From an uncultured delta proteobacterium (lineage in GTDB: Bacteria > Desulfobacterota > Desulfomonilia > Desulfomonilales > Desulfomonilaceae), in contig CAWBBA010000015.1 of NCBI GenBank assembly GCA_963786905.1, positions 22,740-86,739 of the forward strand: 64,000 nt of DNA, written 5' to 3'. The notes below the pieces were generated by a model. It had not been told where the DNA came from. It ran no database searches and worked only from the letters and a program-made list of their open reading frames with translations. Position 1 is the first letter of the stretch. Every line of letters begins with the position of its first letter. This document shows positions 10,963 to 59,620 of the stretch, piece by piece. The position numbers and the translations under genes were made by a program.

Positions 10963-11132
10963 GCAACGCGTGTCACAATATGAACCAAATGGGCCAAAGG
11001 TTTAGCCTCCACCACAGCGGGGCAAGGAATCCAGCGGGTCGTCCTCATTTAGGGATGACCCAGCGGAGATCCGGCAAACCTCGGAAGTAACATGTTTATG
11101 AAAGCACTATATCGATACGGGGAGTGGATGCC

Positions 11133-12494: not shown

Positions 12495-12531
12495 GACTCG
12501 TCTGAGGCCACGTTAATACAAGGGCGCCTTC

Positions 12532-13134: not shown

Positions 13135-13146
13135 AGGTTCAGAGCC

Positions 13147-14124: not shown

Positions 14125-14127
14125 CAG

Positions 14128-16231: not shown

Positions 16232-16345
16232 GCGGCAGACCTGTTGTGACCTACACTTTGAAATGACCGCCGCGACCGGTATTCAGACACTGGACATTGA
16301 AAAGTTTGTCGGAACATGGCCTTCGAAGTGAAGGAGGAGAAGAAG

Positions 16346-16858
16346 ATGAAAAAGACAGTCTATTCCCTGATGATCCTGTCTCTCTTTCTCTGCGTGCCTA
16401 TGCAGGCCACGACTCAAGACAAGGATTGTCCCGACTGTCCCAAGAGCTCAACTACCAGCACTTCTCTCGATGCCAAGTGGAAGGAGTTCACCCCGCCAGC
16501 GCTGGCGCCGGGAGAGCGGCCTGATTGCCACCGCGTGCAGTTCGGGAAACAGGACTGTGCCGAATGCCACAAAAAGGAGACCCCCGAGAGCTACAAAGCT
16601 GGTTGGGTTCCAAGCACGGCATCAATAGTGTGAAGTGCGGCATTTGTCACGGTGACGTGAACAATTATCGGGCCAGGCCGGACAGAGTGGTCTGCATTGG
16701 ATGCCACTCCGCGCAGGTCCATAACATGCCTGCCCAGGCTCTTGGTGACCAATTGCTCGTTCTGCCACAAGGGCCATTGGTTCACGGTCCACAAGATAAA
16801 AGATTACGAGAAGTTCTCTCCCGGAAGAGAGCAGCGTTTCAAAGTGCCCGGCTTCTAA
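16346..16858 (+). pseudogene. napM: NapM-like periplasmic tetrahaem cytochrome c, 2 frameshifts
   Basis: AAGGAGG precedes ATG 16346, followed by the signal peptide MKKTVYSLMILSLFLCVPMQA. The four haem motifs CAECH, CGICH, CIGCH and CSFCH are spread over three frames. The last frame reads VTNCSFCHKGHWFTVHKIKDYEKF and ends with TAA at 16856-16858. Confidence 0.6.
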
Positions 16859-16895
16859 GCGCTCTAGACCCGTTATCCGACTTTTGGAGGACACC

Positions 16896-19288
16896 ATGAG
16901 TATGACTCGAAGAGAAATGATAAAGTTGTCGGCGGCGGCATTTGCCGCAGGAGCCTTGAATATACCGTTCGCCGGACGTGCTGACGCATCGGGGGAGCCC
17001 ATGGAAGTGGACAAATGGGTCAAGGGCACATGTCGCTTTTGCGGTACAGGTTGCGGCGTCTATGTGGGAGTCAGGAAGGCAAGTGGTCGGTATCCGGGGT
17101 AATCCCCAAGCCGCGACCAATTTCGGGTTCCTATGCGTCAAGGGATTCAAAGGTTACATGAGCATGTACCACCCGGACCGGCTGAACTATCCCTTGGTTA
17201 AGGCAGAAGACGGAAAGTTCAAGCGAGTCTCCTGGGACGTGGCGCTCGACACTGTGGCGAACAAGTTCAAGGAACTGCAACAGAAGTACGGGAAGGACTC
17301 GGTGGCCTTTTACGGGTCCGGTCAGTGCATGACCGAAGAGAGCTACACCTTCAACAAGCTCTGGAAAGGCGGCTTCGGTTCCAACATGGTGGAAGGCAAT
17401 CCGCGGCTGTGCATGGCTTCGGCTGTGGGCGGGTACGTCACGACTTTCGGCACAGACGAGCCCGCAGGGTCCTACGCTGATATCGAGAAGGCGAAGACTT
17501 TTTTCATCGTGGGTTCCAACATGTCGGAGTGCCATCCGATTATTTTCCGCCGCGTAGCACGACAGAAGCTCAAAGATCCGGACAAGATCAACATCATCGT
17601 CTGCGAGCCTAGGCTCACTTCCACTGCACGGATTGCGGACGTCTGGCTCCCCGCGGACCCGGGCACCGATCTCGCGGTTTTTCATTGCATGGCCCGAGAA
17701 ATCGTCAAAAACAACTGGATTGATAAGTGGTACGTGGAGAACCTCTGTAGATTCACCACTGGAACAGAAGTCGGATTTCAAGACTTATGCTCAATTCCTC
17801 GAGCAGTTCACTCCTGAAGCGGTGGAAAAGACTGACACGATGCCCTGCGGCCAACATCAGGGAGGCGGCCCGGCTGTTCGGGACCCAGGGACCGACCATG
17901 AGTCTGTGGACCATGGGTCTGAATCAGACGGACGAGAGGCGTTTGGGCCAATAATCTGATTCACAATCTCCACCTGATCACGGGCAATATCTGTAAGGAA
18001 GGAGCAGATTCCTTTTCACTGACGGGACAACCCAACGCGTGCGGCGGCGTACGTGAGACGGGCTCCCTGTGCCATCTCCTTCCAGGGACCCGACCTGTGG
18101 CGAATGCGGCGGCCAGGGAGCAGGTCGAGAAGGCGTGGAAAATCCCCGCGGGGAAAATTGATCCCAAGCCGGGGTTCCACACCATGGAGATGTTCGCAAA
18201 GCTGGGAGCAGAGAACGACGCTTCCAAGCCGCTCAAAGGAATGTTCGTCACCACCACGAACCCTGCTCAATCGCTACCGAACGGCCACAAGTACTGGAAA
18301 GGAATGAAGGACGGGTTTCTCGTAGTTGCCGACATCTTCCCGACACGAACCACGCAGTTCGCCGACGTGATATTGCCCGCGGCCTTTATTTACGAGAAGG
18401 GCGGAGTTTTCGGCTGCTCCGAACGCCGCAGCCAGCTCACCGGAAAGTGCGTAGAACCTCCCGGTGAGGCTAAACCGGACCTCTGGATGGCCGCGCAGCT
18501 TGCCAAGCGCATGGGACTGGAAAAACTCATCCCGTGGAACGGCGATGATGCTCCTGCGAGTTAACAAAATGGCCTGGGATGATTACCGGGAATGCGTAAA
18601 GATGACCGAGCACACGCTTTACGGCATAACCTACGAACGGCTCCAGAAATCGGAAGAAGGGCTCCAGTGGCCGTGTCCAGACGACAAGAGCCCTGGAACG
18701 GCCATACGCTACGTGCGCGGCAAAGACCCACTCATGAACATGCCCGAAATCGTCAAAGTGCCGCCACAGGCTCTAATCTATTTCTACGGGGATCAACAGC
18801 ACGAAGGCAAAGCGAACGTGTTTCTGAGGCCTTACAAGGGGCCGGAAGAGCCGCCGGACAAGGAGTATCCGTTTTTCCTGACCACCGGCCGTGTTATCGA
18901 ACAGTGGCACAGCGGCACCATGACCATGCGGGTGCCGGAAATAGCTCGCTCCCAGCCCAATGCTTATGTGGAGATCAATCCGAAGGATGCGGAGGCGTAC
19001 GGCATCAAGAACGGCGACATGGTGAAAATGATCAGCCGCCGCGGCTTCAACATATTGCCTGCCCGGGTGGTGAAGATGTCGCTGCCCGGAATTCTTTTCG
19101 TCCCGTGGTTTGATCAGGATTGGGATCGGATGATGAACCGGGTGACCATCGACGCGTTTGATGACGGTTCTAAACAACCTGAGTTCAAAATTTGTGCGGT
19201 ACGAATCGAACGGGTGGGTGATCCCAAAGACGTGGCGGACATGACGATCATCTCCAGTGTGGACGCCCCATTTCCGGAAAAGGTGTGA
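16896..19288 (+). pseudogene. napA: Periplasmic nitrate reductase catalytic subunit NapA, at least 5 frameshifts
   Basis: Tat signal MSMTRREMIKLSAAAFAAGAL and the N-terminal FeS motif KWVKGTCRFCGTGCGV. Fragments 16884..17102, 16978..17817, 17633..17959, 18097..18564 and 18464..19288, plus an unlisted frame (PAANIREAARLFGTQGPTMSLWTMGLNQ), tile a full NapA. Confidence 0.85.
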
Positions 19289-19525
19289 CGAGACGATCGT
19301 AATCGTTCACCGCGGAAATCGCGAGATCGCAGAGAAAGCGTTTTTCTGTGTTTGTTGCTGAGCAAGAAGCATAGTGGATTGCGAGTGAATCACCTTGAAC
19401 ATGTGCATTGGCTGAGTCTTCGTGTCCCGATACGTATTAACTCATTTGAGCTCATTATCTCTGCGATCTCGGCGCACTCTGCGGTAAATCCTGCTTTCTG
19501 ATCCAAAGCTCCGGAGCTTTCCCCA

Positions 19526-19828
19526 ATGGTCATCACCGGCAGTGCCCTTCTTATCAAGCGCGGCGCGGACATAGAGGTCCTGGAGCGGCTTAAGCAGTTC
19601 CCTGAGGTGACTTTCCACGTGAAGTCGGAATCGGGAACCGAACTGGTTGTGAATTTCGAAGCTGAGGACCACGATTCGTTGGAGCGGCTCTGCACAAGGA
19701 TTAAGGAGGCGATTCCCGAAATCATCGAAATAGCCCATGTGTATGTGAATTTTGAAGACGAGATCGAAAAGATCAAGTCGGGAAAAATTGTTAAGGGATC
19801 GCTTAACAAGCCGAAGTTCGACGAATGA
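19526..19828 (+). CDS. napD: NapD-like chaperone
   Basis: 100-aa protein (LIKRGADIEVLERLKQFPEVTFHVKSESGTELVVNFEAEDHDSLERLCTRIKEAIPEIIEIAHVYVNFE) with the NapD-type pattern, positioned after napA. Confidence 0.6.
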   Translation: MVITGSALLIKRGADIEVLERLKQFPEVTFHVKSESGTELVVNFEAEDHDSLERLCTRIKEAIPEIIEIAHVYVNFEDEIEKIKSGKIVKGSLNKPKFDE

Positions 19829-19875
19829 TGCTGGTGGTTAGGAGGTAAGAATTCAGTTATCGGCGGCGAAAGTTT

Positions 19876-20177
19876 GTCATTGCGAGCAAAGCGAAGCAAT
19901 CTTATCGTTTATACTGACTGCCAAAGATAATGTCCCTTTGACCATGAGGCGGGCACGTTGCAGGGGAGCTGGTTCGGGTCTGCCTTGTTTGTCATTCCCG
20001 CGAACGCGGAATCCAGAAGGCCCAAATAACAACAATGGTAAACCCTGTTCAGACTTTCCCGGACTGGATTCCCACGTTCGCGGGAATGACGGGATTTGGC
20101 CTCTCTGAATCGGACAAGAATTCTGGCAATGGCTATAAGCTCTGAGATTGCTTCGTCGTTTCACTCCTCGCAATGAC
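19876..20177. repeat. Nested palindromic (REP/MITE-like) element
   Basis: Outer arms are GTCATTGCGAGCAAAGCGAAGCAATCT (19876-19902) and GAGATTGCTTCGTCGTTTCACTCCTCGCAATGAC (20144-20177). Inner arms are GTCATTCCCGCGAACGCGGAATCCAG (19991-20016) and CTGGATTCCCACGTTCGCGGGAATGAC (20064-20090). Confidence 0.8.
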
Positions 20178-20205
20178 GCGGACGCTACAATGTCCGCGTA
20201 AGTGA

Positions 20206-21018
20206 ATGGTAATTTCAGGAGAACAACGAACCTTGAGTTCAGGTTGGATAAATAGTCTTCTGAAACGGTTTCTTGGTGAGCGCGAGAATCCTCTGGCAAA
20301 TCAGTACAGCGAGAACCGTCTTCGCCCTCCCGGAGCAGTGGACGAGAAACGATTTATGGCGCTTTGCATACGCTGCAATCGCTGCCTGGAGGTCTGTCCG
20401 TACAACTCAATCCGGCGCGCGGGCCTGGGCACAACTATGGGAACGCCTTACGTTCTGCCGCTGGAGAAGGCTTGTTATCTTTGCATGGCCTGCTGCCGCC
20501 TCTGTCCTACAGGGGCACTGGACAGGCTCCTGAGCAACCCCGAGGGCGTTGCGATGGGCAAAGCCAGGATCGACACCTCCATCTGCTACAGCCACCTCTT
20601 TGTGGACCATGATGTGCTGCCTGAAAACGCAGGCCAAAAGATCGGTGCGCTTTGCAACACGTGCTACAATGTTTGTCCGCTTCCCGACAAAGCCATAGCG
20701 CTGAAGCAGAACCTCTTCCCTGTAATTCTGGACGGTTGCGTAGGTTGCGGTATCTGCACCGAAAGGTGCCCTACCCGTCCCAGACGGGCGATCAACGTGA
20801 TTCCCGCGGGTGTGGGGCGGGTTGACGAGGCAGGGTTCTATTTTCGCAAGGCCCGGAAACACTTTGAGTCAGCGGTGCGTGTGGAAAGGGACGGGGCATC
20901 AGGGGCCTTGAAAGGGGAGCAACTTCTAGAGCAGAAATCCTTAATTGAAGGGACCAAGGAACAGCCGCAATTCGAATTCCCATACCAGGTTCCAAAATTC
21001 ATAGAAGGTTGGGATTGA
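20206..21018 (+). CDS. napG: NapG-like multi-cluster 4Fe-4S ferredoxin
   Basis: LRPPGAVDEKRFMALCIRCNRCLEVCP, CYLCMACCRLCP, CNTCYNVCP and CVGCGICTERCP. The start codon is uncertain. Confidence 0.7.
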   Translation: MVISGEQRTLSSGWINSLLKRFLGERENPLANQYSENRLRPPGAVDEKRFMALCIRCNRCLEVCPYNSIRRAGLGTTMGTPYVLPLEKACYLCMACCRLCPTGALDRLLSNPEGVAMGKARIDTSICYSHLFVDHDVLPENAGQKIGALCNTCYNVCPLPDKAIALKQNLFPVILDGCVGCGICTERCPTRPRRAINVIPAGVGRVDEAGFYFRKARKHFESAVRVERDGASGALKGEQLLEQKSLIEGTKEQPQFEFPYQVPKFIEGWD

Positions 21019-21857
21019 TGTACGGGCCGTACAGAAAAACAGTTCAGATACTGGTGTTCGGGATCATGTTCGGGATCCCGTTACTCAATTTGTATGAAAT
21101 ATATGCAGTGACCGGTACTTTCTACGCGGTCAACATCGGGGGGCTCGGCATAGCTGATCCAGTGGTAATCCTTCAAGCGATATTTGCATCGGGCGAACTC
21201 ACAGTGCCATTGCTGGGCGCAGCCCTTTTCCCCGTCTTTATTGCGCTGTTATTCGGCAGAATCTGGTGCGGCTGGATGTGTCCTTTTCACCTGCTGGCCG
21301 ACGTCGCGGCGTGGTTACGCAGACGATTCAGAGGAAAAGGCTCGCGGCTTGCCAGGGATGAAAGCTTGGTGGTCGCGGATTCATTCAAGGCCAACACTTG
21401 GCGCTATGGCTTCCTCGCCGCGGGAACCCTCGCGGCCGGTGCTATCAGCATCCCCGTCCTGAACTACGTGAGCGCTCCCGGTATTCTGAGCACGGAAGCG
21501 ATGATACTGGTCAAAGAACGGATGGTGTCACTGGAGTTCTCTTTCATAGCCCTTCTTTTCCTCCTCGAACTGTTAATCTTACCCCGTTTCTGGTGCAGGC
21601 TCTTCTGCCCCACCGGCGCTTTTATTGCAGTCTTTCGCGTCCCCTTCACTCTCCGGGTCGGGACGAGTATAAGAACTCCCAAGGCCCCATGTTGCAAGGA
21701 GAACCGATGTTCAGGCGCGTGTCCGATGGGTCTGGCGCCTTTCCGGGAGGGGAACAATCTGCTCTGCACGAACTGCGGCCTGTGTATCGATGCGTGCCGA
21801 GCGGCAGAAGGTTCTGGTAGGCTGAGATTCCAAGGCTTTCAGGCATTTGATCGGTGA
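21009..21857 (+). CDS. napH: NapH-like membrane FeS protein
   Basis: Four TM helices with CGWMCPFHLL and RFWCRLFCPTGA motifs, and a C-terminal CSGACPMG...CTNCGLCIDAC. Overlaps the end of napG. Confidence 0.8.
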   Translation: MGLMYGPYRKTVQILVFGIMFGIPLLNLYEIYAVTGTFYAVNIGGLGIADPVVILQAIFASGELTVPLLGAALFPVFIALLFGRIWCGWMCPFHLLADVAAWLRRRFRGKGSRLARDESLVVADSFKANTWRYGFLAAGTLAAGAISIPVLNYVSAPGILSTEAMILVKERMVSLEFSFIALLFLLELLILPRFWCRLFCPTGAFIAVFRVPFTLRVGTSIRTPKAPCCKENRCSGACPMGLAPFREGNNLLCTNCGLCIDACRAAEGSGRLRFQGFQAFDR

Positions 21858-38005: not shown

Positions 38006-38770
38006 TTAGAAACGATGAATAAATGACGCGAGGCCCTGGATCATATCCGTTCCTGAATTGGAATTGTGAAGCTCATCCCCCTTGCCCCACATATTTCCAT
38101 TACAAAGGTGCCTCCACTGTACTCCCAGGGAAAAGACAGCGTCGCCCGGCAAACATCGTTCAAACCCGAATCCGCCAAGAAAAGACCAGTTCCAGCGGGA
38201 ACCTGAATTGCGGAACGTCTCCGACACGTAGCTAAGTCCCGCGCCGCTTTCAAGATACGGGGCCACCCCAACCGAGCAGATAGGAAAAGTAAACCGCCCC
38301 TTGGGGACCCATGCCAATTCGTATCCATCATGGAAGTCGAGTTTCTTTATCCGTTCGACGTTCCCTTCATAATAGACAACATACGAAGCCAGCATCGCGA
38401 CCTGGACTTCTCCTACAGCAGGACCCCAAAGGGTAACTGCCGGGAAACTGGAGAGCCGCTTGCTGAATTCCAAGGTTGCATAGTCGAGCTGCGTTGAGGT
38501 CCCGTAGGTGCGTCCATAGGCTAATTTGACCAGGTAATCGTTGGCAGGCCGGAACGCCGGAGCTGGTGGAAGAAGAGAAGCCTGCAGGCCATTGGGTGGA
38601 GCGGGAGGCTGAACGATCCCCGAAGCGTTCATGTCCGGCAAGGGACCGTCCCAGCTCATGGCCGACAAGCAAGTCAAAATGGTAATAAACGTCGTTGAAA
38701 CAACGACGCGGAAAACCACGCGACAGCCCAAACCCACGATATCCTCCTTGAACGAAGCGACAAGAAACAA
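38006..38770 (-). CDS. Outer-membrane acyloxyacyl hydrolase / lipid A deacylase (PagL-like) beta-barrel
   Basis: N-terminal signal, alternating beta-strand pattern, C-terminal WRHLCNGNMWGKGDELHNSNSG (HxSN-like catalytic motif) and a terminal aromatic residue. Confidence 0.5.
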   Translation of the reverse strand: MFLVASFKEDIVGLGCRVVFRVVVSTTFITILTCLSAMSWDGPLPDMNASGIVQPPAPPNGLQASLLPPAPAFRPANDYLVKLAYGRTYGTSTQLDYATLEFSKRLSSFPAVTLWGPAVGEVQVAMLASYVVYYEGNVERIKKLDFHDGYELAWVPKGRFTFPICSVGVAPYLESGAGLSYVSETFRNSGSRWNWSFLGGFGFERCLPGDAVFSLGVQWRHLCNGNMWGKGDELHNSNSGTDMIQGLASFIHRF

Positions 38771-38994
38771 AACAAACCAACAGTGAACCGCTCGCTAGCA
38801 CGGAGTTCGCGCGCTGTCAAGAAAGAAAAAGCTCATATTTGTGCTAAAAGAGGGTGATTTCGAGTGGCGCGGGTCACATTCATGCAGGATTTGGTTAGTC
38901 TTGCCCCGTGTCTTGTAGGATGTCCGCTATCTTCAGGAACAGGTCTGAATCGCGGACAATCCCTTCGGTTGATAGCCTGGTCGTTCGGGCATCT

Positions 38995-40709
38995 TCATGC
39001 GCTGTTTACCCCGGGTTCCTGGAGCATTTCCCAGTTGCGGATAACTGTAAGAGCTTCTTCGGGATTTCTCACCGAAGATAGACTTTCAACCAGTTGCCGA
39101 TTACGGGCGGCTCGGCTAACGAGAGCAAGAACTTGAACCTGAACAGCAGGTATGTGAGCCGGAGAGAGAATCAGGAAGACAAGTTCAATGGGCTTGCCCG
39201 CGGACTCGCCGAGGACACCCTGTCGCGTCAAACCCAAGGCCACCACCGGCGTAGAAATTCCCTCAATCCGAGCATGCGGGAACGCTACTCCCTCATTGAA
39301 GAAGGTCGAACCCTGCTCTTCTCTCTTCCTCACTGCTTGCAAAATCTCGTCAGAATCACATGCTTCGACGTCTTTGTCCGCGACCTCCACCAAGGCCTTC
39401 AGGACAAGATCTTTCTCAACAGGCGTGTCCCACGTGATGATTCGGCGACTCGACAACAAACCGCTGAGGCTCAGAGAACCCGCGCTGACAGAAGGTTCGA
39501 CCACAGACGTTTTCTTACTTTCAGGTAACCCTGCCTCCGCTTTATGTGTCGGGGTTTTCTGGCTGCTGGTGTCGAGAACTACCACAGTAATGCCTTCCGG
39601 GTTCTTGATAAGGCGTTCAACAACACTCTTTTCCCCAACAGTCTTTTCCAGAAACGGGACCTTGCCGGGGCTGCCAAGGACAATGTGGCCGACTCGGTAT
39701 TCCTTTGCAAAACGCAGGATAGTGTCTGCAGACGTCCTCTCCCTTGTACGTGAACACCATGGCCCCCAGTTGTTTTGCAAGGGTCAGCGTACTTGAGAGA
39801 AGCCGCTGGGTGTGCGCATCAATGACGGTAGGCTCTTCCGAGGGTGTTTGAACGTACACTGCATACCAATTCCGGTTGAGTCGTCCGGCAAAGCGGGAAG
39901 CATAGCGCAAGAGCATCTCACTATTGGGACCGCGTGAGCTCAGACAGACCATCACCTGATCAGGAGCGGGATCGCTGCCGTCCCCCGAGCTTTCGCGCAT
40001 CCTCAGGTCAATCTGCGATGCAAGTTCACGCAGTGTAAGTTCACGAAGCGTTCTCCAGGTTCGGCGTCTTGAAAAAATTGGCCAAGGCTGTCTCAATACG
40101 TTCCGGCGGATAGATTTTGCCTTCCCGCAAACGTTCCAGGAGGTCTTCGGTGGTGAGGTCCACATTTACGATCTCGTCCGCTTCAGCGAGGATCGTGTCC
40201 GGCAGGCGTTCCCGGACCTTGACGTGAACGGTCTTTTCTACGGTGTCGTACAGGCTCTCCAAATGCTGAACGTTCAGGGTCGTAATTACGTGTATTCCCG
40301 CGGCCAGAATGTCTTGAACGTCCTGATAGCGTTTGGGATTTCGACTACCAGGCACATTGGTATGAGCCAGTTCATCAATGAGCGCGACCTCGGGTCTGCG
40401 GTCCAAGACCGCATCAACGTCCATTTCCTCTAAGACGTGTCCTCGGTATTCCTGACTTCTCCGCGGGATCACTTCCAGGCCGTCGATGAGTTTGGCTGTA
40501 TCCACTCGGCCGTGAGTCTCGATCAACCCCACCACAACGTCTATGCCTTCAGCCATGAGCCGGTGGCCCTCTTGGAGCATCTGATATGTCTTTCCCACTC
40601 CCGCGCCGTAGCCCAGGTAAATCTTCAACCTGCCCCGGCGGGAGCGGCGAATCATGCGCAAGAAGGTATTGGCTCTATCTTCGGTCATAGGTTTTCGTTC
40701 ATCTTGCAT
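38995..40709 (-). pseudogene. KdpD N-terminal sensor domain plus Usp domain fused to a PTS EIIA(Ntr)-like domain; no kinase core; 2 frameshifts in the KdpD-N/Usp part
   Basis: ORF 40041..40709 carries GRLKIYLGYGAGVGKTYQML...ALIDELAHTN (KdpD_N). ORF 39617..40165 is Usp-like. ORF 38995..39780 is uninterrupted and contains the Usp C-terminus (HIVLGSPGK...VVERLIKNPEGITVVVLD), a linker and an EIIA_2 domain (REEQGSTFFNEGVAFPHARIEG...PIELVFLILSP). Confidence 0.7.
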
Positions 40710-41286
40710 CGAGAGACAGGTTCAATGTCAGCACGTTCACCCTCGGCTCTCCGAGGATTCCCAAGGTCCTCCCCTCGGTATGGGCTTGCACCTTTGCCAG
40801 AATCGCTTCTTCGCTCATGCCGCGTGCCTTGGCAACCCGAGCCGGCCTGTATGAGAGCGTTCTTCGACACTTATATGCGGATCCAAACCGCTGGCCGAGG
40901 CTGTTACCGCATCGGCGGGGACCGGAACCGTGGGTGGCAAGATTGTTTTCCGCGCGATAGGCCTCGACCCGTTCTTTTACCGAATCGATCAATTTCTTGG
41001 AGGTAGGACCGAGATTGCTGCCTCCTGAGCTTGCCGCGTCGTATCCCACGTCGCCCGCAGCAGAGGGCCGTGGATGAAAGTACTTTGGACCTGTGAAATT
41101 TTGGGCAAGAAGCTCTGACCCAATGATCTTTCCATCTCGTACTATCAGGGAACCGTTGGCCTTGTCGAGGGAACAGCGCCTGTGCTACGCCCCACACCAC
41201 CAACGGATAGATGCCGCACACAATCACGGCCAAAGAGAGCGGTAGCTACTACGGAAATGCGAAGCTCGGACAATGAGATTCTTCAT
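40699..41286 (-). pseudogene. kdpC: K+-transporting ATPase subunit C, at least 3 frameshifts
   Basis: GGAGGAG precedes ATG 41286. Fragments read AVIVCGIYPLVVWGVAQALFPRQ, NGSLIVRDGKIIGSELLAQNF (other frame) and GYDAASSGGSNLGPTSKKLIDSV...[44 protein letters not shown]. Confidence 0.8.
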
Positions 41287-41301: not shown

Positions 41302-43331
41302 CTACGCAAGATGCAGGGCTGACACGACCATGTCTATGAGTTTTATTCCTACAAACGGCGCCACCAGTCCACCAAGCCCATAGATGAGCAGGTTGCGACG
41401 CAATAGCACGGCAGCGCTAAGTGGCCGGAAACGTACCCCGCGCAGCGCCAGAGGTATGAGCGCCACAATGATGAGCGCATTAAAGATGACCGCGCTCAAA
41501 ATGGCACTTTGGGGCGAATGTAATCCCATGATGTTCAACGGGCTGATCACAGGAAAAGTCGCGACCAGCATCGCGGGAATTATCGCAAAATACTTGGCTA
41601 CGTCATTGGCGATGCTGAAAGTCGTTAGAGCCCCGCGCGTCATGAGCATCTGTTTTCCGATTTCCACAATCTCGATGAGCTTGGTGGGATTGGAGTCCAG
41701 ATCCACCATGTTGCCCGCTTCTTTCGCCGCCTGAGTCCCCGTATTCATGGCCACTCCCACGTCGGCCTGAGCCAAGGCGGGTGCATCGTTGGTACCGTCT
41801 CCGGTCATGGCCACGAGGTGACCCGTCGCCTGTTCCTTACGGATCAGTGCCAGCTTGTCTTCAGGCCTGGCTTCGGCAAGGAAATCGTCTACTCCGGCTT
41901 CCTTCGCGATAGCCGCGGCCGTCAGTCGATTGTCACCAGTGATCATGACGGTTTTGATTCCCATGGCGCGAAAACGCTCAAAGCGGTCTTTCAGACCGCC
42001 CTTGACGATGTCTTTAAGATGAATGACACCGATTGCCTTGTCATTTTCAGCAACCACCAGTGCTGTTCCACCTGATGTCGAGATCCTTGTCACTGCGTCC
42101 TCAACAGACTGGGGCAGCGCCCCCCCACGAATTCTGTCACTGCATCAGGCGCTCCTTTCCTGATCTGTCTGCCGTTAATGTCTACGCCGCTCATCCGCGT
42201 CTGGGCCTTGAACGGGATGAACGTGGCACGGGGCATGTCCGACATGCTGCCGGCCTCTGAGCCCGTACTGCTTGGCAAGGACTACAATACTTCTGCCTTC
42301 CGGTGTCTCATCAGCCAGAGAAGCCAGTTGAGCGGCATCGGCCAATTCCTGGACTTCGACTCCTTCGGCCGGGATGAACTCCGTGGCCTGACGGTCTCCA
42401 AGGGTAATGGTACCGGTCTTGTCCAGAAGCAGGACGTCCACGTCACCCGCGGCCTCCGCGGCCCTACCGCTCATGGCAAGCACGTTCTTCTGCACCAGAC
42501 GGTCAATTCCCGCTATGCCGATGGCGCTCAAAAGACCACCGATGGTCGTGGGGATGAGGCAAACCAGTAATGCCACCAAGACCGTGATCGACAAAGAGAG
42601 AGAGGCGTAAATAGGCCAAAGAATTTCAGAGTAAGGATGACCATCAGAAAGATGATGGTGAGAGCCGCCAGGAGGATCGTCAGGGCTATCTCGTTCGGAG
42701 TCTTTTGGCGTTGGGCCCCTTCAACCAGGCTGATCATGTGGTCAAGAAAGCTTTCACCCGGATTTGCCGTTATTCGGACTATGATTCGATCCGAGAGCAC
42801 TCTGGTGCCGCCAGTGACCGAGCTTCGGTCGCCGCCCGCTTCCCTTATGACCGGAGCGGATTCACCGGTTATTGCCGATTCGTCAACAGACGCAACCCCA
42901 TCAATCACCTCGCCGTCACCGGGGATGATCTCTCCTGCCGAGACCACCACCTCGTCGCCTTTTCGCAGTTTTTCCGCAGAGATTTCCTGCTCGACCAGAC
43001 CGTCCTGTAAGAGGCGGTGCGCCATCGTGTGAGTGCGCGTCTTTCGCAGAGCATTCGGCCTGGGCCTTGCCTCTACCTTCGGCTACTGCTTCCGCGAAGT
43101 TGGCGAACAAGACGGTGAACCAGAGCCAAATGGCAATCTGGAATCCAAAGCCGAACGTCTCGACCTTCAGGCCTGACAATTAGACTCCGCGGTGGTTATT
43201 GCGGCTCCAACCTCGCAGACGAACATGACCGGGTTTCTTGCCATGCTCAACGGATTGAGCTTCTTGAAAGAGTCTATCACCGCCTGGGTCAGGATCTCAC
43301 GTTCAAAGGTCGAATGTATTTTTGCCGCCAT
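41302..43331 (-). pseudogene. kdpB: K+-transporting P-type ATPase subunit B, at least 4 frameshifts
   Basis: Fragments 42916..43179, 42528..43025, 42175..42594 ([12 protein letters not shown] phosphorylation motif) and 41302..42093 ([18 protein letters not shown]) tile a full KdpB. ATG at 43331. Confidence 0.9.
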
Positions 43332-43345
43332 GTCGGTAGTTCCTC

Positions 43346-45153
43346 TTAGAACAGTACGTTGGAACCGGTCATAAGATAGTGCTCCACAATGGGTCCCAGC
43401 GAGAGGGCCGGGAAAAACGTCAGGGCTCCCACGATCAGAATCGTGCCCACCAAGAGCACCGTGAACATCGGCCCGGACACGGGAAAGCTACCGCCACTCG
43501 GCGGAACCAGCTTCTTCTTGGCCAGGTTTCCCGCCAGCGCCAGAACCGGAACTATCATGAAGAATCGCCCCATGAGCATAGCGATTGCCCATAGTAGTGT
43601 CGTACCAGTACGTGTTGGCGTTGAGGCCGGCAAAGGCACTGCCATTGTTTCCTGTTGCGGACGAGTACGCGTACAGGATTTCGCTGAAACCGTGAGGCCC
43701 GGTATTGTTCAAACCTGCCAGACCCCAACCAGCTCACAGCAGCCCATGCGGCGAAGCCCAGGATGCTCAAGACAGGAACCATCACGTAACAGTACGCTTG
43801 CTTTCACGTCATAGGCTTCTATCTTTTTGCCGAGGTATTCCGGCGTCCTCCCGACCATCAGGCCGGCAAGAAACACGGCCAGCACCACGAAGACCAGCAT
43901 TCCATAGAGACCAGCTCCGACGCCGCCGAAGATCACTTCGCCCAACTGGATGTTGAGCATTGGGATCAATCCGCCCAACGGTGTGAAGGAGTCATGCATG
44001 GAGTTGACCGCGCCGCAGGAAGCGTCGGTGGTCACCGTGGCAAAAAGCGCAGAATTGAAAATTCCGAAACGGACCTCTTTGCCTTCCATGTTTCCGTAAG
44101 CAGCATCCACTCCCAGGGCCTGCAACCGCGGATTGCCTGCTGCTTCGGCCCACCAACAGACCATCACACCCGATCAAAAAGATCGCTGCCATCGCGCTCC
44201 AGACTGCCCACCCGTGCCGCTGGTTCTTCACCATTCGCCCGAGATAGTAGGTCAATCCGCTTGGGATCAGAAAGATCGACAACATTTGCAAAAAGTTTGA
44301 CAGAGGTGTCGGGTTTTCGTACGGGTGGGACGCATTGGCATTCGTAAACCCGCCTCCGTTGGTCCCCAGCATCTTGATCGCCACCTGGGAGGCCATTGGC
44401 CCTTGTGCAATGGTTTGAGTCTCGACCTTCCGGTCCTCCATCACCGGGTTGCCTTGAGCGTCCTTGACTTCCTGTCCGTCGGCACCTTTTTGGGGAACCT
44501 GAGTGGTGTAAGGTTCGATCACCTGCACTGTTTCGTAGGGCTTAAAGTTTTGGATCATGCCTTGCGACACGAGAAACACCGCATAGACAAGACAAATCGG
44601 CAAAAGCAGGTAGAGAGTTCATTCGAATCAAATCGATCCAGAAGTTGCCGATGGTTTTTGCAGAGTTGCGTGCAATGCCTCTCACCAGCGCTGCCGCCAC
44701 CGCTATGCCTGTGGCTGCGGAGATGAAATTATGAAACGTCAGCCCTACCATCTGGGAAAGATACGACATGGTTGATTCGCCGCCGTAGCTTTGCCAGTTG
44801 GTGTTGGTGGTAAAGCTCACCGCGGTGTTGAAGGAGAGGTGATCGCTGACAGGCCCGAGGCCCTGGGGGTTAAGCGGCAGCATGTGCTGAAGCCGCAGAA
44901 TCGCATACGTGAACAGGGCGCCGACAAGGCTGAAGGCAATTAGAGAAAACGTATACTGTTTCCAGTCCTGCTCCTTCTGCGGGTCCACCCGAAGAAGGAA
45001 ATAGAGCAGCCGTTCCACAGGTCCCATTACTGGAGCCAGGAAAGTCTTGCCTTCAATGTCCAGAACCTGGACGAGATACACTCCCATCGGCTTTGTCAGC
45101 GCCACAAGAAGACCGACGAACAGGGCTAATTGAATCCATCCAAAATAGTCCAC
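43346..45153 (-). pseudogene. kdpA: K+-transporting ATPase subunit A, at least 4 frameshifts
   Basis: GTG 45153 is preceded by AGGTGA. Fragments 44542..45153, 43992..44603, 43709..44167 and 43346..43645, plus a short bridging frame, tile a KdpA-length multi-TM protein (TNTNWQSYGGES, GTNGGGF motifs). Confidence 0.85.
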
Positions 45154-45159
45154 AATAAT

Positions 45160-45252
45160 TCACCTCGTCAGAACCATTCCGGCCTGTAGGACCGTGATGA
45201 ACAGGTACACAATCAGAATCACGCCTATCAAGCCAACGATTATATCAACCAT
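45160..45252 (-). pseudogene. kdpF: KdpF-like small membrane peptide; the 3' end appears shifted by one extra G
   Basis: As given it reads MVDIIVGLIGVILIVYLFITVLQAGMVLTR*. Removing one G from CAGGCCGG gives ...VYLFITVLQPEWF*, the usual KdpF-type ending. Confidence 0.55.
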
Positions 45253-45255
45253 TGT

Positions 45256-45339
45256 TCAGATCCTCTCGCACGCCAGGCAGTACAAAACGCACAGAGCGAA
45301 GAAAGCTATGAGACCCACGACAAAAATGAGATCAGTCAT
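45256..45339 (-). CDS. 27-aa hydrophobic peptide, translationally coupled to the upstream kinase (ATGA overlap)
   Basis: MTDLIFVVGLIAFFALCVLYCLACERI*. Its ATG (45337-45339) overlaps the kinase stop TGA (45332-45334). Confidence 0.35.
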   Translation of the reverse strand: MTDLIFVVGLIAFFALCVLYCLACERI

Positions 45340-47197
45340 ATTGAGTGTCGTCCTCGAAAACACGATCAAAACGTCTGAGAGAAAAAGTAAAGGTGCTTCC
45401 TTCAGCTTCCCGGCTTTCAGCCGTAATAGTCCCGCCGTGCGCCTCCACTATCTCTTTTGCAATGGCAAGCCCCAAACCCGCGCCCGAGTTAGATTCCTGG
45501 CCGGGAATCCTGAAGAATTGCTCGAAAATTGTTTGAAGATAGCGCTCCGGTATGCCTTTGCCTGTATCCGAGACTGAAAAACGAACAAATTCCCCGTCAG
45601 CCTCTGCGGATAGAGTTATGACGCCGCCCGGATCAGTGTATTTCAAAGCATTGGAAAACAAGTTCGCAAAAATATGGCTTACTCGCGTCGGATCGACCCA
45701 AACTTCGGGCAAGACATTCGGTAGTTTCACGACCATGCTTACGCCGCAATCCTGGCAAGCACTCCGGAAAGGTTCCGCCGCATCCAAGGCCAGAATGTGA
45801 GGGGACGCCGACTGGAAATGCATGTGTGCCTTTCCTGCCTCGATCCGGCCTATGTCCAACAAATCTTCCAGGATCTTGTAGAGCCGTTCGGCATCTTCTT
45901 CCGCGGCAATGAGGACCTCGACCTGTTTTTCAGTCAATCCCCCCAAATCTTCTTCAAGGAGCAAATGAATTGCCATGCGAACAGATGTGAGCGGTGTTTT
46001 CAATTGGTGAGACACGGTAGATATTACCCCCCGTTTCAAGTCATCCTGCTGGGCTTGCTGCGTAACATCTGAAAGAATGAACATCACTGCCGTCGCTTGT
46101 TTTTCCCGGTCCAAGATAGGCACTGCGCGTGGACGAAAGTAACGTTCTTCTCCGTTGACAAAGCGTTGGATCGGAAATCGGCTACCACTTGGTTCGACCG
46201 AAGCGCCGTTCTTAAGGGCGGTGTTGAAAAGGGGCAGGATCCAATCGAGAGAAAGACCTTGAATCTGCGTGTTGGGCTTGAGCCCGAAAGCACCGACAGC
46301 AGCCTCGGTGGCCACTTCCACCCGTCCATCTAGGTCCACGACCGCGACAGCATCAGGGAGAGCGTTAAAGGCTTGTTGTGTGGCGTGCTGAATTTGAGCC
46401 AATTTGGCCTGACGAGTACGTCGAACCCGCCGGAGGCTCTCTGTCATGGAGTTGAAAGCTTCTGACAACTGGCCTATCTCATCGCGGGAGTCAGTTTTTA
46501 CAACTAAGTCGAGATTTCCCGCTTTAATTTCATTTGTTGAAAGGATGAGCCGGGTTATCGGCCGAAGGATCCATCGTCCGGTAAAAAATATGAAGCCTCC
46601 CGCTACAACTGCTCCGACGACCAGCAGAAAATACATCTGCTTCCTGGCAGACTCAGCCCGGCGTCGCGCACGGTCATTCGCATCGCCCATGCTGTGTTGG
46701 TTCATCCGAAGGATGTCATCAGCCGTGGTCTTGATCTGTTCAAAGAGCGGCAGCAGTTTAGTAAAATAATTTGTACGCCTCACATCAGCAGGAAGACTTT
46801 CGTCTGTCGCATCCTTAATTGTTGATTTATACTGATTGAAGAGGTCTTGGAGCTGATGAGCTTTTTCGCCTTCTCCGGGGAGCGTAATATTGCTCATCTC
46901 CACTTGGAGGGCCTTCTCGAAGGCCGATTCATTGGCATCGATCAGCTTCATCCCCTCTTGCTCGTACCCAAGCAGCACAAAAAGTACTCCGCTATCTATA
47001 CGCTCCAGAGCTTCCTTCATTTGCTGGCATGCGATCACGCTGCGATAGTTCTCTCGAAGGATCACATCGATGGAATCCCCGAGCTGGGAGAGCAGGATGA
47101 CGCTCTGCCCGCCGACAATAAGAATTATTGCCAGTAACCCGCCGAATCCCAATGACAGTTTTTGCCTGAGGCCAAGCATGTTATGTTCCTCGCTCAA
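45332..47197 (-). CDS. Sensor histidine kinase (four-helix-bundle sensor, HAMP, PAS, HisKA, HATPase), intact
   Basis: TM segments flank a helical sensor, followed by HAMP (ILRPITRLILSTNEIKAGNLD), VSHQLKTPLTSV and SGAGLGLAIAKEIVEAHGG. The start is possibly MLGLRQ at 47179. Confidence 0.9.
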   Translation of the reverse strand: MSEEHNMLGLRQKLSLGFGGLLAIILIVGGQSVILLSQLGDSIDVILRENYRSVIACQQMKEALERIDSGVLFVLLGYEQEGMKLIDANESAFEKALQVEMSNITLPGEGEKAHQLQDLFNQYKSTIKDATDESLPADVRRTNYFTKLLPLFEQIKTTADDILRMNQHSMGDANDRARRRAESARKQMYFLLVVGAVVAGGFIFFTGRWILRPITRLILSTNEIKAGNLDLVVKTDSRDEIGQLSEAFNSMTESLRRVRRTRQAKLAQIQHATQQAFNALPDAVAVVDLDGRVEVATEAAVGAFGLKPNTQIQGLSLDWILPLFNTALKNGASVEPSGSRFPIQRFVNGEERYFRPRAVPILDREKQATAVMFILSDVTQQAQQDDLKRGVISTVSHQLKTPLTSVRMAIHLLLEEDLGGLTEKQVEVLIAAEEDAERLYKILEDLLDIGRIEAGKAHMHFQSASPHILALDAAEPFRSACQDCGVSMVVKLPNVLPEVWVDPTRVSHIFANLFSNALKYTDPGGVITLSAEADGEFVRFSVSDTGKGIPERYLQTIFEQFFRIPGQESNSGAGLGLAIAKEIVEAHGGTITAESREAEGSTFTFSLRRFDRVFEDDTQYD

Positions 47198-47374
47198 AGC
47201 TTATAAGCAACCTTAATGCCAAATCCATCCGCACCTAACCCTTCGTAATTACACCAAGGGTGAACAACTCGCTAGGTGGAGTCTTGCACCTGGCAAGGTC
47301 CGCTATCGAAACGCCTTGCATTATGCAAGGTCAGACAGGTGTCCCCCGGCTCGGGCCTTCTCGTTATTATTGAA

Positions 47375-48733
47375 TCAAATTTTATATTGCTTGCGTCGGC
47401 GCCACAGCGTGGCCTGATCTATCCCGAGAATTTCAGCGGCTTCTTGGAGTGATTTCGTTGACGCCAAAACGCGCCTGATGTGCTCTTCTTCAATTCTGGC
47501 CAGGCTTGCGGGGTCCCCAAGTTTAAGTCTGGCCATGTTGTGAGAAATTCTGTCGGGCAAATGTTCGACGCCGACAACGTCGGATTTGCAAAGGATAGCA
47601 GCCCGCTCAACGATATTGCTTAATTCCCTGACATTACCGGGCCAATCGTATTCTTTGAGTCCTTGAAGGGCACTCTCTGTGAAACCTTGGAAAAGACGAT
47701 GGTTCTTGCGGCCAAAGAACGCCAGTAACATCTCTGCCAAGGGGACCACATCTTCGGGTCGCTCACGTAAAGGAGGAATTTCAATCTGGATAACGTTGAG
47801 TCGATAGAAGAGGTCTTCTCGGAAGCGTCCTTCCCGAACCGCATTTTCCAAGTCCACATTGGTGGCCGTTATGATGCGGACATCAGCCTTTCGTGTAATG
47901 AGTTCGCCCACACGCTCGTATTCACGGTCTTGAACAAATCGCAACAGCTTGGGTTGAAGGGGCAGTGGTAGGTCTCCGATCTCATCCAAAATGAGAGTTC
48001 CGCCCTCACAGATTGCTATACGTCCGGGATAATCACGAATTGCTCCAGTGAATGCGCCCTTGGCATGCCCGAATAGTTCACTTTCCAGCAGCTCCAAGGG
48101 AAGAGTCGGGCATGAGATGACCCCCAGAGGCTTTTCGGCGCGACCACTCCAATGATGGATGGCTCGAGCCAGTGCGCTTTTTCCTGTACCGCTCTCGCCG
48201 CGAAGCAGGACACTGGCATCTGAAGCGGCAACTTCACGCGCCAGGTTCACCGCCCGTTGCATTGCCGGGGTGGAGCTGGAAAAGTCCGCCTCGGGGATCG
48301 ATCTTCCCAGCTCGTCCTGCAGTGCTGTAAGCTTCTGTTCTAATGAGCGAACTGAGGCCACTTTGCCGACAACCAGATTCACTTGCGCGGGTGTAAACGG
48401 CTTCGGAATATAGTCTGTCGCCCCACGACGCATTGCTTCAACCGCAGTACCAATAGAAGAATAAGCTGTTATCACCACTACTTTGAGCCAAGGGGTTGAG
48501 GCCAGCAGCAAGGGGATCAAATCCATTCCGTCGTCTGTGCCAAGCCTGAGATCGACAAAAGCCAGGTCAAAAGAACGCCGCGCAGCTTCCGCGACGGCAT
48601 CTTGAAAATTACTGACCGCAATGACCTTATGCCTTCTTGTTTCCAGACAAATGGTTAATGTTTTGCGAATGTTGACCTCATCATCCACAATCAGAATGTT
48701 GAGAGGCCCTGCTGAGGTCTTCGGTTCAACCAT
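47375..48733 (-). CDS. Sigma54-dependent response regulator (NtrC family: REC, AAA+, HTH), intact
   Basis: LNILIVDDEVNIR...DLAFVDLRLG, GESGTGKS, GAFTGA, ESELFGH and a C-terminal HTH (LQEAAEILGIDQATLWRRRKQY). Confidence 0.9.
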   Translation of the reverse strand: MVEPKTSAGPLNILIVDDEVNIRKTLTICLETRRHKVIAVSNFQDAVAEAARRSFDLAFVDLRLGTDDGMDLIPLLLASTPWLKVVVITAYSSIGTAVEAMRRGATDYIPKPFTPAQVNLVVGKVASVRSLEQKLTALQDELGRSIPEADFSSSTPAMQRAVNLAREVAASDASVLLRGESGTGKSALARAIHHWSGRAEKPLGVISCPTLPLELLESELFGHAKGAFTGAIRDYPGRIAICEGGTLILDEIGDLPLPLQPKLLRFVQDREYERVGELITRKADVRIITATNVDLENAVREGRFREDLFYRLNVIQIEIPPLRERPEDVVPLAEMLLAFFGRKNHRLFQGFTESALQGLKEYDWPGNVRELSNIVERAAILCKSDVVGVEHLPDRISHNMARLKLGDPASLARIEEEHIRRVLASTKSLQEAAEILGIDQATLWRRRKQYKI

Positions 48734-49173
48734 GGGAAAACCCGTCCTGCGCTGAGCAAAAATAGGATCCTGTTCTCGGACCGGGAGCTGTGACATAAGA
48801 GTATGACAATTAAGAGACAATTCGGTAACACTCTTTTAGAGACACTGCAAAAAAATTCACTGAATCACCGGGCAACTCGTTTCATAGAGTGACCATTGCG
48901 GTTAGAACACGGCATGATACGGACCAGCTTTCATACTGAGAAAATGCCGTTCGTCACGGTAGGGGCAGACTTGCGTGTCTGCCGGATTTAGGCGTACACA
49001 CGGGCGAGCCTGCATAAAGCATGTTGTTGGGAGAAGTCCACTAAGTATTCATCGCTTGGCGTCGACTTCGTATACGTCGCTGAATTTCATTCTCTTGACA
49101 CTTTGCCTGCGGATTGCTATTTCAATAGCTACAACACGCTTTTGCCGCATCACTGGAGAGGGAAATATGCGGC

Positions 49174-50068
49174 ATGCGGGGAAAGGGGGTGTCTCCCTAC
49201 TTGGATGAGATTCAGCCTTCGAAAGAGGGAAACCTGCATCGGTGGTTAAAAAGAATCGGCCTGGAACGGCGCCCGAAGGAAATTCAGGAAGTCCTGGACG
49301 AAAGTGAACAACAGGGACTGATCGGCCATGATGAAGGGGACATGATCGAGGGGATCTTCGATCTGAAGCAGACCGTGGCCCGAGAGATAATGATCCCGCG
49401 AACCCATTTGGTTTCTGTTTCTAAAGATTGTACGCGCGAAGAGCTTCTTAATACCATTATTGAGTCCGGTCATTCACGCATTCCGGTGTACAGCGAAAAC
49501 GTGGATCACATAGTCGGAATAGTCTACGCCAAGGACCTTCTACCCTTGTGGCTCAACGGGAGAGATGAGTTCAGTATTGAGGAAATCTACAGGGAGCCGT
49601 TCTTCGTACCCGGAAACCAAGCGAATCAACGATCTTCTTAATGAACTGCGAAGCAAGAAGTCCCACCTGGCAGTGATCGTGGACGAATACGGCGGAACAG
49701 CAGGTATCGTTACTATTGAAAATATCATTGAAGAGATTATCGGCGAGATCCGGGACGAACATGACGTCGAGGAGGAGTTGTTCCTGCCGCAAGAGGATGG
49801 ATCTGTGCTGATTAACGCCAGGGCAAATCTTGATGATTTCGAAGAACATTTCGGAGTCACCCTTCCCAGGGAAGGATTCGATACGCTGGGAGGGTTCATT
49901 ATCCATCTCATGGGTAAGGTCCCCCGAAAAGGTGAAGAGATTACCTATGAGGGACTTCGAATGCGTATTCAAGGCGGTGACCAAAAAAGGATAACCCGCG
50001 TGCTTGTAGCTCTAGAAGTCGAGGCCGATGCTGGAACGTCTTCCAGTAACCAAGAACTCATTCCATGA
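49174..50068 (+). pseudogene. CorC/HlyC-family protein (CBS pair plus CorC_HlyC domain), one frameshift near 49600-49640
   Basis: ORF 49174..49641 carries the CBS pair (VAREIMIPRTHLVSV...GHSRIPVY). ORF 49565..50068 carries SHLAVIVDEYGGTAGIVTIENIIEEIIGEIRDEHD and the transporter-associated domain. The gene sits upstream of lnt, as is common for ybeX/corC. Confidence 0.8.
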
Positions 50069-58322: not shown

Positions 58323-59517
58323 TTATGTGCGAATAATGACAGCCTCTCCCTGGGTCAAACCTCCGCAAATGGCAGCGGCTCCGAGACCCCCGCCCCGACG
58401 ACGAAGCTCGTACATCATCGTCATGGAGATTCTCAGACCCGAGGCACCCACCGGGTGTCCGAGAGCGATGGCTCCTCCGTTGACGTTGGTCTTTTGCAGC
58501 AACTCAAACCAGCGGTCTCGGTCGCCATCCGCGAGGATCTTGGTGCTAACCAGCGGCATGGCCGCAAACGCCTCGTTGATTTCAATGAGATCGATCTGAT
58601 CGACCGTCAATCCCGACTGAGAGAGGGCCTTCTTGATCGTGAGCGCCGGTATCCACGAAATTCCGTAAGGCGCATTGGTTTCTCCGGCCACTTCCACGAT
58701 AGTGCCCAGCGGCTCAAGGCCGAGTTCCCGTGCACGCTCCTCGGTCATCACCACCATTGCTGAGGCTCCATCGTTCAGACCCGGGGCATTTCCGGCCGTG
58801 GTCGTACGAGCCCCGAATATGGTCGGTAACTGCTCCACCGCAGCGACCGTGCTGTCAGGCCGCGGGGACTCATCTGCCGAAAGGAGGAATGTGTCCCTAC
58901 CCTTTCGAACCTGAATAGGAGCCAACTCATCCTCGAATTTGCCTTCTGCCTGCGCTTGGATGGCCTTCTTGTGCGAGCCCACTGCCCATGCGTCCAGCAT
59001 CTTCTTTGGAACATCATATTTATCCGCACCGTCGGACAGCGTCCACGGCCACGGAATTGTATCCAGTGTACGTGATCGGATAGATCGGATCTTTCAAGTT
59101 GACATCGCCAATGCGAACTCCTCCCCTCAACCCGCGATGCATGTGAGGTATCCTGCTCATGGCTTCCACGCCCACGATCAAGGCTGAAGAGAACTCCCCC
59201 AGCCTCAGTCCCCAAACCGCCATGCGAAGCGCTGTGAGCGAAGAACAGCACGCGGTATCCAGAGTAATGGAGAATCTGTCGATTCCCAGCTTGAGGCCGA
59301 CCTGGCGGCCGGTTACCGAAGCGGTTTCAAAAGACGGTGGGAAACAGTTACCCACAAAGATGTGATCAATTTCCGTGCTAATATCACTACCTTGGGCAGT
59401 CAGAGCGGCCTTGCCGGCATGAACCGCCAGGTCCAGGGGTTCCATTGCGGAAAGGGCCCCCAGGTATCTTCCGAAAGGGGTTCGTTTTGCCCCCACGATG
59501 ACGAAACTCTCTGACAT
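58323..59517 (-). pseudogene. Thiolase (FadA-like), one frameshift near 59000-59020
   Basis: ORF 59020..59532 carries SFVIVGAKRTPFG and DTACCSS. ORF 58323..59000 carries NEAFA, GGAIALGHPVGASG and CGGLTQG. Confidence 0.85.
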
Positions 59518-59620
59518 GTGTATTCTCCTCATGCCGCTTGTTAAGCCACTTTAGAGCCATATTGGCCTGCCTTGATGTCCTTCCGAGTTCAGGACCAAGC
59601 ACAAGTTTTTGAACGGGGGA

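Follow-up and report, generated by a model that had tools for sequence, protein, structure and literature searches.

An EIIA(Ntr)-like domain fused to a KdpD_N-Usp protein lacking a kinase core in a sigma54-dependent kdp operon of an uncultured delta proteobacterium

The N-terminal domain of KdpD, KdpD_N, is an atypical serine kinase that phosphorylates Ser162 of the pump subunit KdpB and inhibits KdpFABC (PMC11018627). In E. coli, this activity has been shown to require the Walker A GKT, the Walker B pair D109/E110 and W39 and R190, the adenine pair (PMC11018627). Where the kinase core is absent, as in short KdpD/Usp proteins, inhibition of the pump is the only function, with c-di-AMP as the input in Deinococcus geothermalis (PMC11018627). 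Control of potassium transport by the nitrogen phosphotransferase system, PTS(Ntr), is recurrent, and a rhizobial kdp cluster contains ptsN2 (PMC13104625). PtsN of E. coli binds the HisKA/transmitter domain of KdpD (PMC9239096, PMC13104625), and PtsN of Sinorhizobium fredii binds the KdpD GAF domain (PMC9239096, PMC13104625). Here we describe kdpD'-EIIA, a gene in which a KdpD_N-Usp module is joined to an EIIA(Ntr)-like domain. It lies in a stretch of 64,000 nucleotides (the window) from an uncultured delta proteobacterium of the family Desulfomonilaceae (GenBank assembly GCA_963786905.1, contig CAWBBA010000015.1, positions 22,740 to 86,739 of the forward strand).

As assembled, the gene is divided among three overlapping open reading frames (ORFs):

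38995..40688, minus strand: kdpD'-EIIA gene, encoding KdpD_N, a KdpD-type Usp and an EIIA(Ntr)-like domain
40709..40041, 40165..39617 and 39780..38995, minus strand: the gene as assembled, three overlapping ORFs in three frames
39010..39420, minus strand: EIIA(Ntr)-like domain, with the His of GVAFPHARIEG at ~39270..39280
40050, minus strand: inserted C, first frameshift, GGAGAA[C]GCTTCG; base not present in the related loci L001, L003 and L014
39730, minus strand: inserted T, second frameshift, GACGTC[T]GCAGAC, relative to the same three loci
39632..39654, minus strand: compensated indel pair, +T at 39654 and -A at 39632

The insertions were located by aligning the DNA to these relatives, of which L001 is 91% identical and L003 (CAVUIT010000015) and L014 (CAWEJR010000035) are each ~90-92% identical over 29.3-50.5 kb of the window. 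Two frameshifts had been suspected from the letters alone, and they do exist as the single-base insertions at 40050 and 39730. Without the C the protein reads NLEK-LRELTLRELA, and without the T it reads YKGEDV-ADTILRFA, in both cases as in all homologues. The compensated pair turns the conserved FWKRLFGK into FLEKTVGE, scrambling seven codons, changing five residues and removing a nearly invariant Trp. After removal of the two 1-base insertions the product has ~563 residues. It probably begins, as the relatives do, with the ATG at 40688 (MTEDRAN...) rather than at 40709.

The first ORF, 40709..40041 (minus strand), carries GAGVGKTYQML...DELAHTN and matches Pfam KdpD (PF02702, E 5.1e-89), the middle ORF, 40165..39617, gave no match by itself in the Pfam search, and the third, 39780..38995, runs uninterrupted from the Usp C-terminus into a PTS_EIIA_2 domain (PF00359, residues 121-249, E 2.7e-19) with GVAFPHARIEG. 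The EIIA_2 match reaches 70 bits, the cut-off being 27. The three ORFs joined at their junctions give a frame-corrected protein of 570 residues with Pfam matches to KdpD (4.8e-94), EIIA_2 (1.1e-18) and Usp (5.6e-05; 24.2 bits, barely above the cut-off of 24). Over 99% of its length it aligns with P0001, an intact database protein of 563 residues, at 93% identity. Neither the three ORFs nor the frame-corrected protein has a transmembrane, GAF, HisKA or HATPase match in Pfam. A sequence-only reading of this DNA had placed KdpD_N and Usp regions ahead of an EIIA domain, with the Usp C-terminus and EIIA in one unbroken ORF and nothing resembling HisKA or HATPase after it; the profile searches bear out each of these points, including the EIIA_2 assignment. 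The product is predicted to be a soluble, KdpD-like protein without a kinase core, and there is little doubt about the anatomy and family assignment.

The His of the EIIA domain aligns with the phosphorylated His73 of E. coli PtsN and a preceding Arg with Arg57 (alignment to 2A0J and 1A6J). Among the homologues of the frame-corrected protein, taken as the best 120 of at least 8000 candidates, the His is invariant (120/120) and the Arg is present in 119; within the motif Arg...A-x-P-H, the His, Pro, Ala and Arg are each found in 119-120 of the 120. The Arg and A-x-P-H are also kept in divergent full-length fusions that are only 28-50% identical, within the stretch that matches, to the C-terminal ORF of the window. 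The closest solved structures of the EIIA part are those of PtsN (2A0J, E 1.3e-10; 1A6J, E 1.4e-8), with sugar-specific EIIA proteins behind. In a structure model of P0001 based on a 40-sequence alignment, the EIIA part has pLDDT values mostly of 75-93 and superposes on 1A6J with a Foldseek TM-score of 0.83-0.86 and a root mean square deviation of 2.0 A.

The N-terminal half retains the serine-kinase signature. GKT of the Walker A motif (G-x5-GKT) is present in 118/118 ungapped homologues, followed by Y, F or W in 116 of the 118, and both the Walker B D-E and the Arg equivalent to R190 are found in 120/120. All the residues required for serine-kinase activity in E. coli KdpD_N are invariant or conservatively replaced in the homologues. 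The best structural match to the Usp region of the P0001 model is the Usp domain of Staphylococcus aureus KdpD with bound c-di-AMP (7JI4; Foldseek TM-score 0.86).

The fusion is widespread. All 120 best matches to the frame-corrected protein carry both PF02702 and PF00359 and are 521-576 residues long. A pattern scan covering one genome per GTDB species found a relative in 553 genomes; the best 80 loci were examined, and in all of them the match extends through residues 554-570, hence includes the EIIA domain. The titles of these 80 include Desulfomonile/Desulfomonilaceae, Syntrophales, Syntrophobacteraceae, Syntrophorhabdus and Desulfobacteraceae as well as Candidatus Deferrimicrobium, Aminicenantes, Krumholzibacteria and Hydrogenedentota. 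Full-length fusions form at least 11 clusters at 50% identity. A cultured carrier is Desulfomonile tiedjei DSM 6799, whose fusion protein of 551 residues (AFM24578.1 / WP_014809723.1 / I4C4T7) is labelled 'PTS sugar transporter subunit IIA' in RefSeq (WP_014809723.1); I4C4T7 shares a 90%-identity cluster with an EIIA-carrying protein. When only the N-terminal 399 residues of the D. tiedjei protein were used as the query, 116 of the 120 best matches had an EIIA domain. A few relatives that are ~75% identical lack it, for example that of Desulforhabdus amnigena (394 residues). Given this spread of clusters and the EIIA-less relatives, the fusion is widespread and its EIIA part behaves as a module.

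The family has been counted before under another description. A survey of KdpD in 5495 species files D. tiedjei I4C4T7 as 'KdpD domain, Usp domain' and scores it as a serine kinase and not as a histidine kinase (PMC11018627). The fusion family is thus already included in that survey, its extra EIIA domain unremarked. No description of a KdpD_N-Usp-EIIA fusion was found in the open-access literature searched, which included a 2026 review of PTS(Ntr) in which the words 'fused' and 'fusion' do not occur. The possibility raised earlier, that the architecture is already common and characterised, is therefore half right: it is common, in 120/120 best matches and in several phyla, and no paper characterising it was found.

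The fusion gene closes a kdp operon that is preceded by its own regulatory pair:

47375..48820, minus strand: NtrC-type response regulator, intact; receiver, sigma54-interaction AAA+ and HTH_8 domains
47283..47330, minus strand: two TGCA-type inverted repeats, CCTTGCATAATGCAAGG and CCTTGCCAGGTGCAAG, ~60 bases upstream of the promoter
47206..47221, minus strand: sigma54-type promoter, TGGCATTAAGGTTGCT, ~27 bases before the kinase ATG
45332..47179, minus strand: histidine kinase, intact; 4HB_MCP-HAMP-PAS-HisKA-HATPase
45256..45339, minus strand: 27-codon hydrophobic ORF, MTDLIFVVGLIAFFALCVLYCLACERI, between the kinase gene and kdpF
45168..45252, minus strand: kdpF, MVDIIVGLIGVILIVYLFITVLRPEWF after removal of an inserted C at 45186
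43346..45153, minus strand: kdpA, ~6-7 insertions
41302..43331, minus strand: kdpB, P-type ATPase subunit, ~5 insertions
40710..41233, minus strand: kdpC, ~5-6 single-base insertions

The true start of the regulator is probably downstream of 48820, and the ATG at 47179 is the probable start of the kinase. The ATG of the 27-codon ORF overlaps the stop codon of the kinase gene (ATGACTGA), and because of this overlap the kinase and the following genes are taken to be co-transcribed. The 27-codon ORF might be an extra KdpF-like peptide; in the related locus L002, two small ORFs stand in its place. The promoter stands in the spacer before the kinase gene, with the regulator gene upstream of it, and is kept across phyla in operons of this type. 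Of 51 related regulator-kinase spacers, 32 contain a strict -24/-12 motif, whose background frequency is 0.019 per kb. A sigma54 scan of the whole window with two mismatches allowed found 14 sites where 10 were expected, showing no enrichment; the case for the promoter at 47221..47206 therefore comes solely from where it lies and from its being kept in relatives. Both it and the inverted repeats, as CCTTGCATATTGCAAGG and CCTTGCCAAGCGCAAG, are kept in L003, and the repeats may be where the sigma54 activator binds. The fusion gene is thus the last of a sigma54-dependent operon consisting of the kinase, small peptides, kdpF, kdpA, kdpB, kdpC and the fusion.

This arrangement is conserved. The full order regulator, kinase, kdpA, kdpB, kdpC, fusion gene is found in 32/80 related loci and, in truncated form, in nearly all the rest; where the flanks are long enough, almost every related locus has it. 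In 5/80 the fusion gene comes directly after the kinase and before kdpA. The suggestion that transcriptional signalling runs through the separate kinase and sigma54 regulator is plausible and well supported by this order and by the sigma54 promoter before the kinase.

Alongside regulator, kinase and fusion genes that are nearly identical, two highly diverged kdpABC cassettes are found. Between the cassettes, KdpA is ~35% and KdpB ~59% identical, and KdpC of the second type has 339 residues; loci with the second cassette include L004, L005, L007, L052, L053, L057, L075 and others. It seems that the pump genes were exchanged and the regulatory genes retained. In some loci a second, shorter KdpD_N-Usp copy lies beside the same kdp genes (L011 8137..9246; L035 19991..21064); these copies are 43-47% identical and lack the EIIA domain.

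Downstream, the stop codon of the fusion gene is at 38995 and an unrelated conserved gene, 38770..38006, starts ~225 bases on. In L003, L004, L005 and L014 a CBS-domain gene of 186 codons lies directly 3' of the fusion gene (L003 11742..12302). About 85 bases of the window (22 codons, 38892..38977) correspond to the tail of this gene, and ~480 bases of it are missing.

We propose that potassium uptake is controlled at two levels. The separate kinase and sigma54 regulator would set transcription of the operon. The fusion protein would act post-translationally, phosphorylating the serine of the KdpB TGES motif, which is kept in the window (ITGESAPV), and switching the pump off. Phosphorylation of the EIIA His by an assumed HPr/NPr-type carrier would raise or lower the serine-kinase activity, and potassium uptake would then follow the phosphoenolpyruvate (PEP)/pyruvate or carbon/nitrogen status of the cell. 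Pump phosphorylation is the likeliest role because KdpD_N is now known as a KdpB-inhibiting serine kinase. Since short KdpD/Usp proteins without potassium-sensing domains need an outside input, the fused EIIA is the obvious candidate for it. The sequence-only reading had assigned the protein only a K+- and nucleotide-sensing link to the PTS; serine-kinase activity (PMC11018627) was not considered there, and the likeliest function changes with it. That reading had also held that the two known partners are covalently joined here. The fusion of KdpD_N-Usp to EIIA stands, but the parts of KdpD known to contact PtsN do not take part in it, because HisKA and GAF are both missing from the protein. 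The anatomy together with two-level control is the best explanation overall, with a probability of roughly 0.5. Its specific element, post-translational pump control gated by EIIA phosphorylation, is put forward tentatively, at somewhat under even odds. The general form, in which a PTS phosphorelay would act directly on a KdpB-inactivating KdpD_N serine kinase in numerous lineages of anaerobes (Desulfomonilia, Syntrophales, Aminicenantes, Krumholzibacteria and Hydrogenedentota), is doubtful.

Several observations weigh against two-level control. The fusion gene is broken as assembled. The second active-site His of PtsN (His120) is Gln in 120/120 members of the subfamily; more distant full-length fusions retain the His. 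The motif for c-di-AMP binding is (A/G/C)-x-S-x-S-x2-N-(Y/F) (PMC8214093), and the Usp here reads C-L-S-S-R-G-P-N-S, keeping three of the five specified positions, so that c-di-AMP is a possible but not an established input. The P0001 model (mean pLDDT 62.5, pTM 0.34) is trustworthy only for EIIA and part of Usp, and contacts between domains cannot be read from it. Finally, tblastn with HPr, NPr and Enzyme I of E. coli found no match in the window or the 80 related loci (1.3 Mb), nor did Pfam scans of 40 further ORFs of the window reveal a PTS gene, although these negatives carry little weight for the genomes as a whole.

Part of this evidence would be accommodated if the EIIA-like domain were not phosphorylated at all, but were a fold co-opted for binding a ligand or protein, with no PTS input. 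The lack of carrier genes in the window and the related loci and the His to Gln replacement fit such a domain, as do the NCBIfam scores for PtsN/EIIA, every one of which is far under its cut-off (TIGR01419, 45.7 bits against 138.7; NF008145, 37.8 bits against 221). However, the near-complete invariance of the His, Pro, Ala and Arg, extending to the divergent fusions, is the pattern expected of an active phosphorylation site, and an unphosphorylated domain seems quite improbable. The main rival model makes the fusion protein an accessory sensor for the kinase of the operon. KdpD_N-Usp would sense a nucleotide, EIIA would bind the DHp/HisKA part of the kinase and shift its kinase/phosphatase balance, thereby acting on transcription via the sigma54 regulator rather than on the pump by phosphorylation. 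This is essentially what the sequence-only reading proposed, and it is modelled on E. coli, in which free PtsN acts in this way on KdpD and PhoR and binds HisKA of KdpD (PMC9239096, PMC13104625). Tight co-occurrence of the fusion gene with the same kinase-regulator pair across phyla argues for it, and so does an EIIA domain nearest to PtsN in sequence and fold. Yet the invariant serine-kinase residues of KdpD_N would be needless in a pure scaffold, and the 75%-identical relatives without EIIA, such as that of Desulforhabdus amnigena, suggest that the N-terminal module works alone. The accessory-sensor model is compatible with two-level control; as an account of the fusion protein it is rather unlikely.

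The remaining alternative concerns the gene itself: the frameshifts could be real and the kdpFABC-kdpD' operon a recently inactivated pseudogene cluster. The damage is concentrated as decay might have it, the 5.5 kb of kdp genes having ~22 insertions and ~15 kb of flanks only ~1 coding frameshift, and the window lacks the CBS-domain gene that relatives have downstream. The insertions lie between 45186 and 39654, across kdpF, kdpA, kdpB, kdpC and kdpD'-EIIA. All but one are single-base, none is within a homopolymer, and they share no common motif; neither L003 nor L014 has any of them, and the genes of both are intact in that region. The flanking genes (regulator, kinase, 38770..38006, DeoC, ADH and M24 peptidase) are intact. 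Natural gene decay is expected to be biased towards deletions, unlike this set made up almost entirely of 1-base insertions. Moreover, with the insertions removed, the ratio of non-synonymous to synonymous substitution rates (dN/dS) on the window branch is 0.07 for kdpA, 0.05 for kdpB, 0.07 for kdpC and 0.12 for kdpD', compared with 0.01-0.18 in the intact neighbours. Because the kdp values match those of the neighbours, no relaxation of selection is seen, and there are no nonsense substitutions. L003 and L014 are long-read-style metagenome bins that bear different frameshifts of their own, breaking ADH in L003 and the regulator, kinase and kdpB in L014, and unrelated genes of the window (thiolase, molybdopterin oxidoreductase, CorC) are broken as well. 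The dN/dS values, the breaks in the sister assemblies and these other broken genes argue for assembly error rather than decay. The frameshifts are almost certainly errors of assembly, the real gene being, on this comparison of sequences, intact with ~563 codons, and a pseudogene cluster is very improbable. The earlier possibility that real frameshifts truncate the KdpD_N part separately thus runs counter to the intact relatives and the dN/dS values. Possibly, the insertion cluster stems from a badly polished or strain-mixed stretch of long-read assembly.

In kdpA, kdpB and kdpC, synonymous divergence on the window branch is ~2x that of the flanks. The broken genes elsewhere in the window are a thiolase split between frames (59532..58323), a molybdopterin oxidoreductase (16978..19288) with several stops at 17817..17990 after which the frame is restored, a CBS/CorC_HlyC gene (49174..50068) split by +C at 49612, and a Tll0287-sensor histidine kinase (10772..9098) that is probably split. 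Clusters of frameshifts are thus present at several positions of the window. A selenocysteine codon was considered for the in-frame break at 17817 of the oxidoreductase and rejected, several further stops following in frame. This gene belongs to a respiratory electron-transfer cluster at 11124..21857, unrelated to the kdp fusion, that comprises multihaem cytochromes c, a 4Fe-4S protein, an NrfD-type membrane subunit, a HEAT-repeat protein, the molybdopterin oxidoreductase and more ferredoxin-like proteins.

In Proteobacteria, the link between PTS(Ntr) and Kdp runs through contacts of free proteins, and its details depend on the species. Covalent linkage that persists in several phyla provides independent evidence, from evolution, for the association of EIIA signalling with Kdp control. 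The EIIA domain is joined to the pump-phosphorylating half of KdpD and not to the transcription-controlling half. This provides a testable hypothesis for the input route of short KdpD proteins that lack potassium-sensing domains, with D. tiedjei as a cultured carrier. If true, a route from the PTS through a serine kinase to an ion pump would have no known precedent, and it would be the first defined molecular output of an EIIA(Ntr)-type domain outside Proteobacteria.

Compared with the canonical KdpD/KdpE system of E. coli, the N-terminal module is homologous over positions 11-425 of the 895 of NF007793 and the partner is likewise kdpFABC. The fusion protein, however, lacks the membrane, GAF, HisKA and HATPase parts, there is no OmpR-type KdpE, and an unrelated 4HB_MCP-HAMP-PAS kinase controls transcription together with an NtrC-type sigma54 activator. 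With EIIA(Ntr)/PtsN (1A6J, 2A0J, 3URR; rhizobial ptsN2) it shares the fold, the positions of the phosphorylated His and the Arg, and the functional tie to Kdp potassium uptake and sigma54-related regulation, but PtsN is a free protein of ~160 residues that binds full-length KdpD, whereas here the domain is the C-terminal part of a 563-residue protein. The closest counterparts are the short KdpD/Usp proteins, such as D. geothermalis Q1J2K3 and the family NF038185 ('KdpD-like non-kinase potassium sensor'). These have the same KdpD_N Walker A/B motifs and KdpD-type Usp, have no transmembrane, GAF, HisKA or HATPase parts, and are encoded with kdpFABC. The match of P0001 to NF038185 spans positions 7-370 of the 373 in the model (E 2e-110), its 369.5 bits being below the cut-off of 550. 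The fusion adds to this plan a linker of ~40 residues and a C-terminal EIIA domain of 150 residues. Stimulation by c-di-AMP is a property of the D. geothermalis protein (PMC11018627), while the fusion keeps only part of the corresponding motif. And whereas the short proteins occur mostly where KdpE is absent, the fusion family brings its own kinase and sigma54 regulator.

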